A stretch of 64,000 nucleotides of DNA, taken from Candidatus Limnocylindrales bacterium. Its GTDB lineage: Bacteria; Chloroflexota; Limnocylindria; Limnocylindrales; CSP1-4. Under the pieces are notes generated by a model. That model searched no databases and was not told the DNA's origin. It saw only the letters and a program-made list of their open reading frames with translations. The stretch lies in the NCBI GenBank assembly GCA_035760905.1, contig DASTSC010000132.1, positions 7,707-71,706 on the forward strand, in the 5' to 3' direction. This document shows positions 36,478 through 59,923 of the stretch, one piece after another (positions within the stretch are counted from its first letter, which is position 1; every line of letters begins with the position of its first letter). A program made the position numbers and the translations under genes.

Positions 36478-36921
36478 GTGCGGGCGCTGCTCCAGCGCGT
36501 CGCCCGGGCCGAGGTCCGGGTGGACGACGAGGTCGTCGGCCGGATCGGGCCGGGTCTCGTCGTGCTGCTCGGCGTCGGCCGTGCGGACGACCGCACGGTC
36601 GCGGCCGAGCAGGCGCGAAGGATCGCCGAGCTCCGGATCTTCCGCGACGATGCAGGTCGGACGAACCGGTCGCTGCTCGACGTCGGCGGCTCGGCGCTCG
36701 TCGTGAGCCAGTTCACCCTCTACGCCGACACGAGCCGCGGCCGCCGGCCGGGCTTCACCGACGCTGCGCCGCCCGAGGTGGCGGTTGCGGTCTACGAGGC
36801 GTTCTGCGCCGCGCTCGAAGCGCTCGGCGTCGTCGTGGAACGAGGCCGGTTCGGGGCCGAGATGGCGGTGGAGCTCGTCAACGACGGCCCGTTCACGATC
36901 TGGCTCGAATCCTCGCGCTGA
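36478..36921 (+). CDS. dtd: D-aminoacyl-tRNA deacylase
   Basis: SQFTLYAD and NDGPFT motifs; 147 aa. Confidence 0.85.
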   Translation: MRALLQRVARAEVRVDDEVVGRIGPGLVVLLGVGRADDRTVAAEQARRIAELRIFRDDAGRTNRSLLDVGGSALVVSQFTLYADTSRGRRPGFTDAAPPEVAVAVYEAFCAALEALGVVVERGRFGAEMAVELVNDGPFTIWLESSR

Positions 36922-36963
36922 CGGCGTGCCGCACGTTGGCCGCCGCGCCCCGAGCGTCGGTGC

Positions 36964-37161
36964 CTAACGGGCCTTCTTCGTGAGCGTCCGGCTGCAGCGG
37001 GTGCAGACGAGGGCGCGCGTCGGCTTGCCGTCGACGTCGACGATCCGGGTCTGTAGGTTCGGGTGATAGCGCCGGTGGGCGCGGACGCGGTTCATCCCCG
37101 ACGACTGGGGGTTGAAGCCGCCGATCGAGGTCTTGCCGCAGATCGCGCAGGAGCGGGCCAT
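36964..37161 (-). CDS. rpmB: 50S ribosomal protein L28 (zinc-ribbon C+ form)
   Basis: MARSCAICGKTSIGGFNPQSS...CTRC; 65 aa; the longer ORF to 37311 is an unsupported upstream extension. Confidence 0.9.
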   Translation of the reverse strand: MARSCAICGKTSIGGFNPQSSGMNRVRAHRRYHPNLQTRIVDVDGKPTRALVCTRCSRTLTKKAR

Positions 37162-37457
37162 GATCGCCTTTCGATGAGTGAGCACGAGGAAGCCCCGGAA
37201 CGGGCCGAGGGGGCCGATAGAATAACACGCCATCGCCCCGTCCCCTGACCGGGGCGAAGCCCATTCGGAGCGGGAGGGAGAACCTGGCGACAGGATCGTC
37301 CGACCCAGCACGCCGCGCCGCCACCGCGGGCCGTCCGGGCGCGCGGCGGCAGTGGTCGAGCGCGCCGGGCTCGGTCGCCCATCGTCGCCGCTCCGACGGC
37401 GACGGCCTCGCCAGGCAGCGCACGTCGCGATCGGCGGGTGCCGCGCCGCGGGCCCGG

Positions 37458-39155
37458 ATCTCGGTCGCGCGGACGCTGCTCGGCGCCTTCGCCGCGGCCG
37501 CCCGGAATCTCGAGCAGCACGCGGCCGAGATCAACGCGCTCAACGTCTACCCGGTCCCCGACGGCGACACCGGCTCGAACATGGTCGCGACCGTCCGGGC
37601 GGCGCTCGCCGAGGCTCGCCGGATCCCGCCGTCCCGGGTGGGCGACATGGCGGCCGCGCTCAGCTTCGGGGCGCTCATGGGCGCCCGCGGCAACTCCGGG
37701 GTCATCCTGAGCCAGCTCCTGCGGGGCATCGGCGAAGCGTCCGCGGGCAAGGAGAGCCTGAGCGGTCTCGATCTCGCCTACGCGTTCGCCGAGGGCACGC
37801 GAGCCGCGTACAGCGCGGTCGCCGTGCCGGTCGAGGGGACGATGCTCACGGTTGCCCGCGACGCGAGCGAAGCTGCCGTCGCTGCCGCCGAGCGCGGTGG
37901 CGACGTCGGCGCGGTGCTCGAGGCCGCGGTGAACGCCGCCGCCGCGTCGGTCCGCCGGACGCCGACCCTCCTCGAGATCCTCGCCCAGGCCGGTGTCGTC
38001 GACGCCGGCGGGCAGGGGCTCTACCGGCTGCTCGAGGGCGCGGCCGGTCACGACCCCGCCGCCGAGGAGACGCCGGAGCATCCGATCCCGACGATCGCCG
38101 CCGGCCCCGGCGGCGTCGGCGAGATCGTCGGCCCGGCGGCCGGAGCCGACGGCGGTCGGCAGTTCGGCTACGAGACGCTCTTCATCGTCGAGGCCCGCGA
38201 CGGGGACCGCCTCGACGCACGCGAGATCCGGTCGCGCCTCGCTGCGCTCGGCGAGTCGGTGCTCGTCGCCGGCGACGAGCACCGGGTCAAGGTGCACGTC
38301 CATGGCGAGCGGCCCGATGCGGTCATCGGCTACGGCCTGTCGCTCGGGACGCTGCGGAACATCTCGGTCGAGAACCTCGACGCCCAGGCGGCGGAGGTTC
38401 GCGACGCGCGCGAGATGCAGCTCGCCGACGACCTCGCCCGCGACCTGCCGCGGCCGGTCGAGTCGGACGGCGAGGATGCGGTCGTGTCCGACGTCCGGCA
38501 GCCCGCGATCCTCGCCGTCGTCTCCGGCGACGGCCTCGCCCGCGTCTTCCGCGCCCTCGGCGCCGACCTCCTCCTCAACGGCGGGCAGGCCGCGAACCCG
38601 AGCACCGGCGAGCTGCTGCGGGTCGCCCGGCTCGCCCGATCCCGTGAGGTCATCGTCCTGCCGAACAACCCGAACGTCCGGATGGCCGCGGAGCAGGCCG
38701 CCGCGCACTGCCCCGAGCGCCGCATCGTCGTGATCCCGACCCGCAACCCCGTCGAGGGGATCGCCGCGCTCCTCGCCCTCGATCCGTCGAAGGACGCCGA
38801 CGCGAATGCCGGACCGATGGCCGACGCCGCGCGTTCGGTCCCGTCGCTCCTCGTGACCGAGGCCGTCCGCGACGCCAGGGTCGACGGCCGTGACGTCCGG
38901 CAGGGCCAGACGATCGTCCTCGACCCGGACGAGGGGATCGTGGCCGGCGGCCCCGACGGTCCGACCGCGATCGTCGAGGCGGTCGCCCACCTGCCACTCG
39001 ACGCCGAGCTCGTGACGGTCTACACCGGTGCCGACGCGAAGCCGACCGAAACGTCCGCACTCGTCGAGCGCCTTCGAGCCGCCCGGCCCGACTCGGAGAT
39101 CGAGGTCGTCGAGGGCGGCCAGGCCCATTACCGCTACCTGATCTCGGCTGAGTAG
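37458..39155 (+). CDS. DAK2-domain fusion protein YloV/FakA-like; start codon uncertain (no ATG/GTG/TTG in frame before the conserved DGDTG motif)
   Basis: Conserved N-terminal DAK2 signature INALNVYPVPDGDTGSNM lies upstream of the first ATG (37581) in the same frame; frame is open from 37221 without canonical starts; ATC 37458 or CTG 37476 are the only candidates; C-terminal DegV/YloV-like domain present. Confidence 0.7.
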   Translation: MSVARTLLGAFAAAARNLEQHAAEINALNVYPVPDGDTGSNMVATVRAALAEARRIPPSRVGDMAAALSFGALMGARGNSGVILSQLLRGIGEASAGKESLSGLDLAYAFAEGTRAAYSAVAVPVEGTMLTVARDASEAAVAAAERGGDVGAVLEAAVNAAAASVRRTPTLLEILAQAGVVDAGGQGLYRLLEGAAGHDPAAEETPEHPIPTIAAGPGGVGEIVGPAAGADGGRQFGYETLFIVEARDGDRLDAREIRSRLAALGESVLVAGDEHRVKVHVHGERPDAVIGYGLSLGTLRNISVENLDAQAAEVRDAREMQLADDLARDLPRPVESDGEDAVVSDVRQPAILAVVSGDGLARVFRALGADLLLNGGQAANPSTGELLRVARLARSREVIVLPNNPNVRMAAEQAAAHCPERRIVVIPTRNPVEGIAALLALDPSKDADANAGPMADAARSVPSLLVTEAVRDARVDGRDVRQGQTIVLDPDEGIVAGGPDGPTAIVEAVAHLPLDAELVTVYTGADAKPTETSALVERLRAARPDSEIEVVEGGQAHYRYLISAE

Positions 39156-39261
39156 GGGAGTCGCGGCTCGCGGGTCGAGCTCCGGGGCCGCCCCGGCTGC
39201 CGCGGACCCGGGGACGCTCCTCGCGCGGCCGATCGGGCAGTCCGGGATCCAGGCCGCCGCC

Positions 39262-41382
39262 GTGCTCCGGCGGCTCGGACCGCGGCTCGGGATCCTGACC
39301 CTGCGCGACCTCCTCTTCCATCTGCCGCGCCGCTACGACGACCTGCGCGAGATGCGCCTCCTCGGCGACCTCGTCTGGGTCGCGGACGGCACGCCGGTCA
39401 GCGCCCGGGCGCGGGTGACGGACGTTCGGGTCGAGCCGGGGTTCAGGCGCCGCGTCCAGCGGACCGTCGCCCGCCTCGAGGACGAGAGCGGCTCGATCGA
39501 CGCGACCTGGTTCGGCCGCCGCTACATCGAGCGCCGGCTCCATCCGGGCGACCGCGTCGTCGTCAGCGGCCGGCTCAAGCACTTCGGGCGCCGGCTCACC
39601 CTCGACAACCCCGACTTCCAGCCCGACGCCGACGACGCCAGCCTCCTCCACGTCGGCCGGATCGTGCCGGTCTACCGCCTCACCGCGGGCCTCACCGCGG
39701 CCCGGCTGCGGACCGCGATCCGGGCCGCCCTCGACCGGGCCGGCGACGAGTACCCGGAGTACCTGCCCGATCGGATCCGGGTCGCCGAGGACCTGGCCCC
39801 GATCGGCGCGACCCTCGAGCACGCGCATTTCCCGCCCGACTTTCCCGAACGCGACGCGGCTCTCCGGCGCCTCGCCTTCGACGAGCTGCTCGCGCTCCAG
39901 GTCGGGATGGTCGCGCGCCGCCGCGAGCGTGACCGGCGCACCGCGAGCCCGATCGAGGTCACGCCCGAGCTCGACACGCGGCTGCGCGGGTCGGTCGAGG
40001 CCTCGATCTCGCGGTCGCTGCGTCGCCCGGTCGTCCTGACCGCCGACCAGGCAGCCGCGATCGTCGCCGTCGGGGCCGATCTCGCTCGCCGCCAGCCGAT
40101 GGTCCGCCTGCTCCAGGGCGACGTCGGCTCGGGCAAAACGGCGGTCGCGGCCTGGGCACTCGGCGGGGCCGCGGCGTCCGGGCTCCAGGGGGCGCTGCTC
40201 GCGCCGACCGACCTCCTCGCCCGCCAGCACGCGGCGACCGTCGGCGCGCTGCTCGAGGACGCCGGGATCGGGGTGACGCTCCTCACGGGCTCGCTCAGCG
40301 GCGCCGGGACGCGCAAGGCCCTCGACCAGATCGCGTCCGGGCAGGCAGGGGTCGTCGTCGGAACGCACGCCCTCATGTCGGAACGCGTCGAGTTCGCCCG
40401 CCTGGGGCTCGTCGTGATCGACGAGCAGCACCGGTTCGGGGTCGAGCAGCGGGCGCAGCTCGAGGCAAAGGCCGCTGACTCGCCGCACGTCCTGCTCATG
40501 ACGGCGACGCCGATCCCCCGGACGCTCGGGCAGGTCCTCTATGCCGACCTCGACGTGTCGAACCTGCGGACGCCGCCGGAGGGGCGGCTCCGGGTCGGGA
40601 CCGGCATTCGCAACCCGGAGCAGGCGTCGAAGGTCTGGGAGCTCGTCGAGAGCGAGGCCCGGGCGGGACGCGCATCGTTCGTCGTCGTCCCGGCAATCGA
40701 CGAGTCCGAGGACGACGGGTCGGTCGCCGCGACGACCGAGGCCGAGCGGCTGCGCCATCTCCTCCCGGACCTGCGCGTCGGTCTCGTCCACGGCCGGATG
40801 AAGGCCGCGGAGCGTGACGCCGAGGTCGGCCGCCTGCGCGACGGCGAACTCGACGTCCTCGTCGGAACCACGGTTCTCGAGGTCGGCGTCGACGTCCCGC
40901 GCGCGACGGTCATGGTCGTCGAGGCGGCCGAGCGCTTCGGGCTCGCCCAGCTCCACCAGCTCCGCGGCCGGGTGGGCCGGGGCACGGAACAGTCGTACGC
41001 GGCGCTGCTGTCGACGGCGGCGCCGAGCAACGAGGCCTGGCGGCGCCTGACCGACGGCGACGTTCCGCCCGAGACCCCCGAGCAGGCGCGGCTCGTGGCG
41101 CTGGCCCGGACGACCGACGGTTTCGAGCTCGCCGAGCAGGACTGGGAGATCCGGCGGGAAGGCGACGTCCTCGGCTTCGACCAGAGCGGCCTGCCGTCGC
41201 TCCGCGTCGCTTCGCTCGCTCGCGAAGGCGACCGCGAGCTCGCGGTCCGGGCGCGCCGGCACGCCGAGGCCCTCCTCGACGAGGCCGGGCGACTCGGCCC
41301 GGACGAGGCCGCGCTCGACCGGGAGCTGCGGACCGGCTGGCTCCGCGGCCTGTGGGCGGGCGAGGTCGCGGCGGGTGTATGA
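39262..41382 (+). CDS. recG: ATP-dependent DNA helicase RecG
   Basis: N-terminal wedge domain, helicase motifs I (GDVGSGKT), II (DEQH), VI (QLRGRVGRG); GTG start (first start codon after upstream in-frame stop). Confidence 0.9.
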   Translation: MLRRLGPRLGILTLRDLLFHLPRRYDDLREMRLLGDLVWVADGTPVSARARVTDVRVEPGFRRRVQRTVARLEDESGSIDATWFGRRYIERRLHPGDRVVVSGRLKHFGRRLTLDNPDFQPDADDASLLHVGRIVPVYRLTAGLTAARLRTAIRAALDRAGDEYPEYLPDRIRVAEDLAPIGATLEHAHFPPDFPERDAALRRLAFDELLALQVGMVARRRERDRRTASPIEVTPELDTRLRGSVEASISRSLRRPVVLTADQAAAIVAVGADLARRQPMVRLLQGDVGSGKTAVAAWALGGAAASGLQGALLAPTDLLARQHAATVGALLEDAGIGVTLLTGSLSGAGTRKALDQIASGQAGVVVGTHALMSERVEFARLGLVVIDEQHRFGVEQRAQLEAKAADSPHVLLMTATPIPRTLGQVLYADLDVSNLRTPPEGRLRVGTGIRNPEQASKVWELVESEARAGRASFVVVPAIDESEDDGSVAATTEAERLRHLLPDLRVGLVHGRMKAAERDAEVGRLRDGELDVLVGTTVLEVGVDVPRATVMVVEAAERFGLAQLHQLRGRVGRGTEQSYAALLSTAAPSNEAWRRLTDGDVPPETPEQARLVALARTTDGFELAEQDWEIRREGDVLGFDQSGLPSLRVASLAREGDRELAVRARRHAEALLDEAGRLGPDEAALDRELRTGWLRGLWAGEVAAGV

Positions 41383-42518: not shown

Positions 42519-42557
42519 TCCGCGCGACCCGGCGCCGCGTCATCGGAGGGCGGACCG

Positions 42558-43118
42558 ATCGACATCATCTTCCTCGTCGAGCGCCTCGAGTCGCTCCTCG
42601 CGAACGGCAAGAAGCTGCCGCTGACGAACAACGTCGTCGTCGACCAGAACGCGGCCCTCGGGCTCGTCGACGAGCTTCGGGCGGCGGTCCCCGAGGAGGT
42701 TCGGGCCGCGAAGCGGATCAATTCCGAGGGCGAGCGGATCCTCGACAAGGCCCAGGAGGAGGCCGAGCGGATCATCGCCCGGGCCCAGGAGCAGGCGACC
42801 TTCCTCATCGACGAGCGTGGCCTCACCCAGGCCGCCGAGGAGGAGAGTCGCCGGATCATCGAGCGCGCGGAGCGCGACGCCGAGGAGATCCGGCGTGGCG
42901 CCGACGAGTACGCGGTCAATGTCCTGGTCGGGCTCGAGGGCGACCTGGTGAAAACGCTCGGCAGCGTCAAGAAGGGGATCGCGATGCTCGACGAGCGCCG
43001 CGCGGAGCTGTCCGCGGAGCCCGGCGATGCCGGGTCGTTCATCGCCGAGGCGGACCGCAACGGTCATGCCCGCGACGTCGACGAGGCGGAGGGGACCTCG
43101 CAGCCGGCGAGGCTGTGA
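42558..43118 (+). CDS. Conserved coiled-coil protein (DivIVA/ATP-synthase-b-like helical protein found between coaD and yceD); non-canonical start, not in supplied ORF track
   Basis: Frame 0 open from coaD TAA (42516) to TGA 43118; translation IDIIFLVERLESLLANGKKLPLTNNVVVDQNAALGLVDELRAAVPEEVRAAKRINSEGERILDKAQEEAERII... is heptad-rich with coding GC3 bias; no ATG/GTG/TTG in frame until codon about 130; ATC 42558 lies 7 nt after GGAGGG. Confidence 0.5.
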   Translation: MDIIFLVERLESLLANGKKLPLTNNVVVDQNAALGLVDELRAAVPEEVRAAKRINSEGERILDKAQEEAERIIARAQEQATFLIDERGLTQAAEEESRRIIERAERDAEEIRRGADEYAVNVLVGLEGDLVKTLGSVKKGIAMLDERRAELSAEPGDAGSFIAEADRNGHARDVDEAEGTSQPARL

Positions 43119-58442: not shown

Positions 58443-58768
58443 CGGCAGGCCGCGCCGATGGGCGCCGGCTTGCCGGATCGGGTGCCGGGTCCATGGGCAT
58501 TTCGGGGCACGGGAGGCCACAAGCTGGTCGGACGACCTCGGTCGCGCGCAGGGGACGGCCCGGACGTTCGCGATCGTGGCCACCGCCCGCAGCTACGACG
58601 CCTCCGCGACGGGCTTCCGCGTCCGGTTGAGCGTGCGATGACCATGCAGCCGGCACGGATGCCGACAAGGTCGCGACGCGGCCGCATACCCGCTCGCCTG
58701 CGCGATCGCGCCGGTCGCGACCCGGTCGCACGTGCGCTCGCGCCGGCCGGGCCGGTCACCGACGAGCC

Positions 58769-58779
58769 CTGTGCTATCC
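58769..58779 (+). promoter_or_regulatory. Extended -10-like element TGTGCTATCCT in the long rpsB leader
   Basis: Read directly; about 160 nt upstream of rpsB ATG. Confidence 0.3.
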
Positions 58780-58936
58780 TCCCGCGCGCCGCCGGACCCG
58801 GCGGTCCCGAGCGCAGACCGCGCCCGGAGCCCACACGCGGATCGTCCCGTCGGGACGGTGTCGGGCCCGCCCTGATCGGGCGCCTCGGCCCCCGGCGATC
58901 AGGATCCGCGGCGGAACCAACCGACCAGGAGGATCC

Positions 58937-59923
58937 ATGCCCCCCGTCTCGATGCGCCAGCTGCTTGAGGCCGGCGTCCACTTCGGCCACCAGACCCGCC
59001 GCTGGAACCCGAAGATGCGGCCGTTCATCTTCGCCGAGCGCAACGGGATCCACATCATCGATCTGGCCCAGACCGTCGAGCGGCTCGACGTCGCCCTCGA
59101 CTTCGTCCGGGAGACCGTGGCGCGCGGCGAGAGCGTCCTCTTCGTCGGAACAAAGAAGCAGGCCCAGGAGCCGGTCAGCCAGGAAGCGATCCGGGCGAAC
59201 CAGCCCTACGTCACGAAGCGCTGGCTCGGCGGGATGCTCACGAACTTCGTGACGATCCGCAAGCGGATCGGCCTCCTCGAGCAGCTCGAGGCGCGCCAGC
59301 AGTCCGGCGAGTTCGAGCGGATCCCCAAGAAGGAGGCGGCCGGACTGACCGAGGAGCTCAACCGGCTCGAGGCGATGCTCGGCGGCATCCGTCGGATGCG
59401 GCGCCTGCCGGGCGCGATCTTCATCGTCGACCCGCATCGCGAACGGATCGCTGTCACCGAGGCGAACAAGCTCGAGATCCCGGTCGTCGGCACGGGCGAC
59501 ACGAACGTCGATCCCGACGAGCTCGACTACATCATCCCCGCGAACGACGACGCGATCCGCTCGATCCGGCTCCTCTGTCAGCTCGTCGCCGACGCGGCGA
59601 TCCAGGGCGCGCAGGAGCGGGCGGCTCGCGCGGCCGCGGAGCCCGAGCCCGAGATCGAGGTCGAGGCGGCCGAGGCTGCCGAGGCCGCGTTCAGCGAGAG
59701 CGCCTCGGATGAGCTCGTCGCGGCGCTCGCGGGCGGCGGTGTCGTGAGCTTCGAGCCCGACCTCGACGAGGACGAGCTGCTGCCGGAGTCACGCCCGGCC
59801 GAGGCGGCGGGTGGCGACGGGACCCCGGCCGCCGCTGCGGCCGATCCTGCGGCGGCCGAATCTCCTGCCGCCGGCGCCCAGGCCGGCTCCGCGGCGTCCG
59901 GCCCCGCCGCCGGCGAATCCTGA
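58937..59923 (+). CDS. rpsB: 30S ribosomal protein S2 with about 90-aa Ala/Glu/Pro-rich acidic C-terminal tail
   Basis: [22 protein letters not shown]..., [15 protein letters not shown] motifs; low-complexity tail. Confidence 0.9.

Follow-up and report, generated by a model that had tools for sequence, protein, structure and literature searches.

We analyzed a 64,000-nucleotide stretch of a Candidatus Limnocylindrales genome (Chloroflexota; contig DASTSC010000132.1, positions 7,707 to 71,706; in the following referred to as the window) with a focus on its gene for a YloV/FakA-like protein, yloV, which has no usable ATG, GTG or TTG start codon. Comparison with four related genomes favors, as a reasonably probable reading, initiation of yloV at the CTG codon at 37284–37286, which would yield a 623-residue protein with a basic N-terminal extension of 58 residues. 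In these genomes the canonical start codon used by more distant relatives has been lost, a Shine–Dalgarno sequence followed by CTG is conserved farther upstream, and the codons that follow this CTG are constrained at the protein level. The complete coding sequence proposed on the basis of the Pfam and TIGRFAM matches and of the start-site argument presented here spans positions 37284–39155 on the + strand (623 codons plus TAG).

The yloV frame lacks a canonical start codon upstream of its conserved motif

The frame of yloV on the + strand is open from 37221, directly after a TAG at 37218–37220, to the stop codon TAG at 39153–39155. Its product was identified as a YloV-type DAK2 fusion with a score of 510.3 bits against TIGR03599 (cut-off 396.1; profile positions 4–530 of 530 matched), and it contains the Pfam domains Dak2 (PF02734, 132 bits), FakA-like_M (PF21645, 76.5 bits) and FakA-like_C (PF13684, 195.7 bits) in this order. 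Since the score against the FakA/VfrB equivalog model NF038248 was 374 bits, below the cut-off of 975, the safe name for the product is YloV-type DAK2 fusion or YloV/FakA-like protein. The Dak2 match begins at residue 111 of the translation from 37221. The DGDTG signature of this domain, which binds the nucleotide and Mg, is encoded at 37560–37574 (+) as read from the translation, within the segment 37530–37583 that encodes the peptide INALNVYPVPDGDTGSNM.

A preliminary description of this DNA had stated that the DAK2 motif lies upstream of the first in-frame ATG at 37581, and that the frame is open back to 37221 without any ATG, GTG or TTG before this position. The translation and an inventory of all in-frame codons bore out both statements, as the earliest canonical start codon is indeed the ATG at 37581, 3′ of DGDTG. 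The full set of near-cognate codons (CTG, ATT, ATC and ATA) in the upstream part of the frame consists of CTG 37245, ATT 37263, CTG 37284, ATC 37458, CTG 37476 and ATC 37530. Counted from 37221, ATC 37458 is codon 80 and CTG 37476 is codon 86 (Leu86). Canonical start triplets occur in frame at 0.035 per codon in the genes of the window, a rate at which their absence over 120 codons has p ~ 0.014; such an absence is by itself uncommon, not extraordinary. In a stop-to-stop survey of 51 coding-looking open reading frames of the window, a start-less stretch that was not explained by overlap with an upstream gene occurred in only two cases, yloV and the gene following coaD.

Loss of the ancestral start codon in a sub-clade of five genomes

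The sub-clade used for comparison comprised five genomes, namely the window, L022 from another genome assembly, L001 (for which an independent Logan assembly, L002, has the identical sequence), and L003 and L004, both from Joint Genome Institute (JGI) metagenomes. The YloV proteins of L022, L001 and L003/L004 share 85%, 78% and 72–74% identity with that of the window, respectively. L022 was the sole addition from a genome scan for further members of the sub-clade, and a protein-guided scan of metagenomes found only relatives of at most 67% identity, all with canonical starts. The exact pattern of the block around the −10-like hexamer described below was not matched by any of the metagenome contigs scanned, and a protein search with the N-terminal extension returned short fragments of other YloV genes and two calls in which Asp23 and YloV are fused (P0312 and P0241).

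Alignment to homologues located the position at which the family usually starts. The outgroups were 22 yloV genes of Limnocylindrales and related Chloroflexota, each of which has ATG, GTG or TTG exactly ten codons before the equivalent of Leu86, which corresponds to position 37446 of the window. A start codon is missing there throughout the sub-clade, and the window has CCG instead (37446–37448, +). The first canonical start codon also lies past DGDTG in L022, and the canonical codons in L001, L003 and L004 are at non-conserved positions only. Thus, the N-terminus expected in the preliminary description about 25–30 codons before the motif agrees with the ancestral gene, as seen from the outgroup starts, and does not apply to the window, in which this start is gone.

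The existing annotations of yloV reflect this situation. An NCBI record from a Candidatus Limnocylindrales metagenome-assembled genome (P0001) is 100% identical to the window protein, has 559 residues and begins with MLGAF, and its start codon is therefore CTG 37476 (37476–37478, +). For the relatives, the lengths given by gene callers disagree (647, 558 and 572 residues), the first of them starting from a non-conserved TTG and the other two being JGI calls. The public gene calls for yloV of this sub-clade all appear to be wrong or inconsistent, and codon-level comparison can locate a start that escapes gene finders.

A trivial origin of the start-less frame, be it an error of assembly or consensus, decay to a pseudogene, or a truncated product translated from ATG 37581, is extremely improbable. 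Such an origin could be considered for a sequence taken from a metagenome-assembled genome, in which recG, the gene downstream of yloV, also lacks the start codon of its relatives. However, the start-less state was found in five independent assemblies. A recurrent G-to-C consensus error, as put forward in the preliminary description, is refuted because four further assemblies, produced in different studies, show the same state (L022, L001/L002, L003 and L004). Decay is at odds with the intact full frame and with the distribution of substitutions in the first 450 nucleotides (nt) after codon 80, which numbered 9–16, 10–16 and 39–54 at codon positions 1, 2 and 3 in the pairs with the window, L001 or L022. 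A product truncated to 37581 would be devoid of DGDTG, and the region 37458–37580 that it would leave untranslated is highly conserved. The other explanation offered in the preliminary description, non-canonical initiation, was right in kind and is the best explanation for a gene with no usable canonical start. An out-of-frame GTG at 37438 combined with a frameshift or indel error was also considered as a start and was rejected because L001 and L022 have no GTG at that position.

A Shine–Dalgarno sequence and CTG are conserved upstream of the ancestral start

The Shine–Dalgarno sequence GGGAGGGAG (37272–37280, +; core GGAGG at 37273–37277) precedes CTG 37284 by 6 nt. In all five genomes it is present as GGGAGG, GGGAGC or GAGGAG at a spacing of 5–6 nt to the CTG, which all of them share in the frame of yloV. 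The sequence then continues in each of them as CTG GCN ACN GGA..., encoding LATGPA(D/N)PxRR. The background frequency of GGAGG at such a position is 1.7%. The organism uses Shine–Dalgarno sequences, as GGAG or GAGG precedes ~40% of the first starts in the window compared to a background of 10%. The leader between the −10-like hexamer TAGAAT (37218–37223) and the Shine–Dalgarno sequence is poorly conserved, and an indel just before the latter, which breaks the frame, makes it 1 nt different in length between L003 and L004 (59 versus 60 nt). Between 37284 and 37458, the yloV frame of the window is free of canonical codons and of further CTG or ATH codons. In L003 and L004, the CTG is the only canonical or near-cognate codon from the Shine–Dalgarno sequence to the end of the 14-codon stretch that leads from the CTG to their first ATG. 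As judged from these alignments, CTG 37284 is the sole conserved near-cognate codon upstream of ATC 37458 that is preceded by a predicted ribosome-binding site.

The block at 37272–37320 is better conserved than the remaining leader, which would also fit a non-coding regulatory RNA or DNA element. We consider this highly improbable. A search of 36900–37700 against Rfam gave no family at its gathering score; the only two matches, THF-II riboswitch and gntR-DTE RNA, were far weaker, at 16 bits and E ~ 3. The covariation term of RNAalifold was unfavorable (+4.8) and many pairs were broken, and the variation in this block tracks the codon positions, as the 13 codons following the CTG have 6, 1 and 10 variable sites at codon positions 1, 2 and 3.

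The N-terminal extension is under coding constraint

The 58-codon extension (37284–37457, +) has no Pfam domain and was delineated by frame-keeping distances and by the ratio of non-synonymous to synonymous differences (pN/pS). It contains 13 Arg, 3 Asp and no Glu residues, and 32 of its 58 residues are Ala, Gly, Pro or Ser; its stretch LATGSSDPARRAATAGRPGAR...ISVAR runs into Ile59 and the following SVAR. From the CTG to codon 80 the five genomes have distances of 174, 174, 201, 189 and 180 nt, every one of which is a multiple of 3. The extension of the window has the same length as that of L022 and differs from that of L001 by indels of 3 nt and 30 nt.

The clearest signal came from the comparison of L003 with L004. 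Their extensions differ by a synonymous divergence (dS) of 0.52, close to the 0.55 of the gene body, and by a non-synonymous divergence (dN) of 0.12, which corresponds to an omega (dN/dS) of 0.23 as compared to 0.09 in the body. In the yloV frame, pN/pS of the extension was 0.30 (Fisher's test, p = 4e-5), whereas it ranged from 0.52 to 3.7 in the five other frames. Over the 14 codons that lead from the CTG to their first ATG, the two genomes differ by five synonymous changes and by no non-synonymous one. Because only synonymous changes precede this ATG, translation in L003 and L004 would start at or just before the CTG. Coding constraint was thus found from the CTG onward and not before it in L003 versus L004, while the signal among the window, L001 and L022 (the trio) is only suggestive. 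The purifying selection in L003/L004 (omega 0.23) suggests that the tail is not mere filler.

Constraint at the protein level is also visible across the two sub-lineages. The motif DGLARQR of the window (37401–37421, +) is encoded by GAC GGC CTC GCC AGG CAG CGC, and its counterpart DGPARQR by GAT GGG CCG GCC CGA CAG CGC in L003 and by GAC GGG CCG GCA CGA CAG CGG in L004. Apart from Leu/Pro, all differences are synonymous, including AGG versus CGA. The substitutions between the extensions of the window and L001 number 19, 8 and 18 at codon positions 1, 2 and 3 (p = 0.085). As the trio signal is weak, the case for the window itself rests on the Arg and DGxARQR codons, the frame-keeping indels, the conservation of the Shine–Dalgarno sequence and CTG, the lack of an alternative start, and parsimony with the sister lineage.

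Several observations weigh against initiation at CTG 37284. In the trio, pN/pS was 0.63–0.82 in frame 0 as compared to 0.7–1.25 in the control frames, and the periodicity of variable sites was not significant (p = 0.36), these sequences being near saturation. The composition of the extension is not gene-like, as its GC contents at codon positions 1, 2 and 3 (GC1, GC2 and GC3) are 0.78, 0.85 and 0.85 compared to 0.80, 0.51 and 0.93 in the gene body. However, a low-complexity tail of Arg, Ala, Gly and Pro could also yield high GC at codon positions 1 and 2. The proposed start is derived from comparative evidence only, and since this evidence comes from five sequences in two sub-lineages, the conservation of the CTG represents few independent events. 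Moreover, initiation at CUG in E. coli reaches only ~0.02–3% of the level obtained with AUG (bioRxiv 10.1101/063800).

Alternative start codons near the ancestral N-terminus

The preliminary description had singled out ATC 37458 (37458–37460, +) as the start. In this case the protein would begin with (M)SVARTLLGAF and the upstream frame would be an untranslated leader, which we regard as unlikely. The window, L001 and L022 all have ATC at this codon, which is located at most four codons from the ancestral N-terminus. In addition, the gene-like GC2/GC3 signature begins only at ~37460, as would fit a start at this ATC. A second gene of these three genomes apparently starts at an ATC preceded by a Shine–Dalgarno sequence, and a precedent for an ATC start exists in dnaA of Deinococcus (PMC2830850). 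Yet there is no Shine–Dalgarno sequence before ATC 37458 in the window, L001 or L022. The codon 5′ of it encodes Arg in all five genomes (CGG, CGG, AGG, CGC and CGT), and the three residues ahead of the ATC are Arg-[Ala/Pro]-Arg in four genomes and Ile-Ala-Arg in L022. Because this Arg codon usage and DGxARQR are conserved at the protein level, ribosomes would already be translating the frame when they reach ATC 37458. The equivalent codon is GTC in L003 and L004, in which the extension is clearly coding. A start at the ATC would also leave the block of Shine–Dalgarno sequence, CTG and LATGPADP as well as the restriction to in-frame indels unexplained. By comparison of the codons, we read ATC 37458 as the internal Ile59, so that its designation as the start was probably wrong.

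Two products could be made from the gene, a long one from CTG 37284 and a short one from ATC 37458 or CTG 37476, or from the ATG at codon 86 in L003/L004. L003 and L004 gained this ATG where the outgroups have Leu, and codon 80 is ATC in the lineage of the window; each sub-lineage therefore has a start-like codon near the ancestral N-terminus. However, these changes (Leu to Met, Val/Ile) are single events per lineage and lend no statistical weight to dual initiation. A Shine–Dalgarno sequence is absent before every candidate codon for the short form, and codon 86 is CTC in L001 and L022. Dual initiation is quite improbable on these grounds.

Even less can be said for a start at CTG 37476 alone, which would give the 559-residue protein beginning with MLGAF and has only a very slight chance of being correct. 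The codon is the annotated start of P0001, and L003 and L004 have an ATG at this position, at which the JGI call P0003 begins. On the other hand, L022 and L001, the two relatives nearest to the window, have CTC here, which does not count among the near-cognate codons. The five codons before 37476 encode SVART in every one of the five genomes despite synonymous differences in their DNA, and a start at 37476 would drop residues that align with the conserved (L/C/W)DG segment of the family.

Proposed expression of yloV and its promoter region

Initiation at CTG 37284 would fit the following course of events. The yloV gene of the sub-clade lost its ancestral start codon together with the upstream gene yloU, an Asp23-family gene to which the relatives couple yloV. 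The transcript probably begins shortly after TAGAAT at 37218–37223, and the 30S subunit would bind GGAGG at 37273–37277. The initiator fMet-tRNA would then pair with the CUG at 37284, with a mismatch at the first position, and insert formylmethionine. Elongation would proceed through the 58-residue, Arg-rich and probably disordered tail into an otherwise normal Dak2/FakA-like enzyme, yielding 623 residues in total, with ATC 37458 and CTG 37476 read as plain internal Ile and Leu codons. The role of the weak start codon may simply be to hold yloV expression at a low level.

The hexamer TAGAAT (37218–37223, +) resembles a −10 element and was assigned from the alignments; among the loci compared, its exact pattern matched in all sub-clade loci and only in these. 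The surrounding block at ~37190–37232 is near invariant in the five sub-clade genomes and recognizable in the outgroups (GGTATGATAGCAC). A generic −35/−10 scan of the leader gave no full sigma-70 match, and neither promoter nor terminator consensus matches were found there, so that a promoter role of TAGAAT is inferred.

The divergent neighbor of yloV is rpmB, encoding ribosomal protein L28 (36964–37161, − strand, with its ATG at 37161). It was assigned from the open reading frame and from PF00830, which is recorded on the 65-residue equivalents in L001, L003 and L004, and the CAT at 37159–37161 is conserved. The intergenic block between rpmB and yloV, GCCCCGGAACGNGCCNAGGGGGNCGNTAGAATANCACGCC (window ~37162–37232), is near invariant among genomes whose proteins are 72–85% identical. 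It could contain the yloV promoter with TAGAAT, a promoter or leader of the divergent rpmB, or both. The block also holds a possible GCCCC...GGGGC stem, which has no Rfam family match.

Loss of yloU and gene neighborhood

In most outgroups, an Asp23/DUF322 gene (yloU) is located between rpmB and yloV, and in most of these its stop codon overlaps the start of yloV (TGATG or GTGA). The five-member sub-clade lacks yloU and has ~300 nt between the rpmB start (37161, −) and the Dak2 domain. Pfam found no Asp23 domain in the 644-residue translation from 37221, and the coupled yloU–yloV operon of the outgroups is thus not present in the window. Two Limnocylindrales outgroups, L009 and L010, also have no yloU between rpmB and yloV, yet retain a canonical GTG or TTG at the usual position; the loss of yloU alone does therefore not force a non-canonical start.

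On the basis of synteny, the extension may be hypothesized to be a remnant of yloU, which would fit the shared −10 box and Shine–Dalgarno architecture. By eye, the regions LATGPADP..RRA and DGLARQR resemble yloU segments, although global alignments were inconsistent. An nhmmer search with a profile of the five extension sequences against 103 outgroup loci found nothing, the best match being on the wrong strand with an E-value of 0.23. In the two fused calls from ENA assemblies, P0312 (197 residues) and P0241 (150 residues), an Asp23 domain is joined to the N-terminus of YloV via an Arg-rich out-of-frame stretch. Both are probably frameshifted assemblies; whether real variants or assembly frameshifts, they illustrate that yloU and yloV easily become one frame.

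In the region ~30–40 nt upstream of yloU in the outgroups L005, L006, L007 and L020, a −10 box of the type TATTATAAC (GYYNKM... in translation) is followed by the ATG of yloU after only a few nt. This arrangement suggests a leaderless yloU–yloV transcript in this branch.

A second gene with a putative non-canonical start

The second start-less frame of the window (42519–43118) follows coaD and lies in the same frame, with TAA 42516–42518 as the sole separation. Its first 142 codons include no canonical start, and an ATC at 42558 precedes the conserved sequence IDIIFLVERLE. The gene encodes a DivIVA-like coiled-coil protein, whose distant homologues start with MEGSPIDIIF, the canonical codon being five codons upstream. 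The window, L109 (from the L001 genome), L111 (from the L022 genome) and L110 have no start at this position. All four share GGAGGG, a spacing of 8–9 nt and ATC GAC ATC ATC (GGAGG at 42545–42549 in the window; L109:1350–1540, L111:568–760 and L110:150–340). Because a 1-nt indel disrupts the frame of L110 between the Shine–Dalgarno sequence and the ATC, coding appears to begin at or just before ATC 42558. The ATC start proposed for this gene in the preliminary description is supported by the combination of Shine–Dalgarno sequence and ATC in four genomes, and the gene looks ATC-initiated. NCBI and other gene callers shorten it to MTNNVV... (P0134 and P0205). As a further candidate for a start-less gene, rpsB (58631–59923) was considered and rejected, since it has a normal Shine–Dalgarno sequence and ATG at 58937.

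With the CTG of yloV and the ATC of the coaD-adjacent gene, putative conserved non-canonical starts occur in two of ~50 genes of the 64-kb window, and in the same three genomes. In annotated model genomes, non-canonical starts account for well under 1%, far below this proportion. It may be that start-codon discrimination is relaxed genome-wide in this Limnocylindrales lineage and that conserved genes drift to CTG or ATC starts. We hold this to be rather unlikely, because it is based on two genes. Such a relaxation might stem from changes in IF3, in the anticodon stem of the initiator tRNA, or at positions 1338/1339 of the 16S rRNA; no initiator tRNA gene is located within the 64-kb window. The two genes nevertheless hint that non-canonical initiation may be more common in this uncultured Chloroflexota lineage.

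Comparison with known systems

Near-cognate start codons are already known in bacteria, so that a CTG start of yloV would not overturn the current understanding; it would join these cases. Its particular feature is a new start 58–67 codons upstream of the old one, alongside the loss of the Asp23 gene. E. coli infC and pcnB use AUU starts, and the weak codon of infC is part of the autoregulatory loop of IF3. Like in these genes, a Shine–Dalgarno sequence combined with a near-cognate codon would be read by the initiator tRNA in yloV, with low expected output, but, unlike in infC, an autoregulatory rationale is not apparent for yloV as a fatty-acid-kinase-like gene. The near-cognates CUG, AUC, AUU and AUA reach 0.02–3% of the AUG output in E. 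coli (Hecht et al., bioRxiv 10.1101/063800).

The closest parallels are the conserved CTG starts of rpsL and Deide_03051 and the ATC start of dnaA in Deinococcus, for which N-terminal proteomics provided the proof (Baudet et al. 2010, PMC2830850). As in these Deinococcus-Thermus genes, yloV is a housekeeping-type gene with a conserved N-terminus upstream of any ATG, GTG or TTG and a near-cognate codon conserved among relatives, and automatic annotation yields heterogeneous and wrong N-termini. In contrast to Deinococcus, for which labelled N-terminal peptides were obtained, the yloV start was deduced by comparing genomes. A further difference is that the codon was swapped at the old N-terminus in Deinococcus, whereas the CTG of yloV would bring a new extension of 58–67 residues together with the loss of a neighboring gene.

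With the yloU–yloV operon of the outgroup Limnocylindrales, the sub-clade shares the gene order of divergent rpmB, yloV, recG, rsmD and coaD, the same domains and the same −10-like box. It differs by the absence of the Asp23 gene and the TGATG junction, in place of which it has an in-frame upstream extension. Bacillus subtilis has a comparable operon of yloU (Asp23/DUF322) and yloV next to rpmB and recG. The three-domain architecture and the DGDTG motif also correspond to FakA/VfrB of Staphylococcus aureus (NF038248). Neither FakA nor B. subtilis YloV is known to have a basic N-terminal extension, and the outgroup YloV genes examined here also differ from the window yloV in lacking it. The replacement of a start codon in this sub-clade would thus be tied to the loss of the Asp23 gene and to the gain of a basic tail on a FakA-like kinase.

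Downstream of yloV (window 39142–39300, L001:4899–5090 and L004:4238–4430), recG starts in L001 and L004 at a GTG that overlaps the yloV stop codon (GTGA). In the window this GTG is gone because yloV ends with TAG (GTAG). A GGGGAG at 39156–39161 near recG is not followed by a start codon, and the earliest canonical start of the gene is GTG 39262, 36 codons downstream. The frame before GTG 39262 is still homologous to the N-terminus of L001 RecG (LLARPIGQSGIQAAA versus LLDARLAASGLSGAN).

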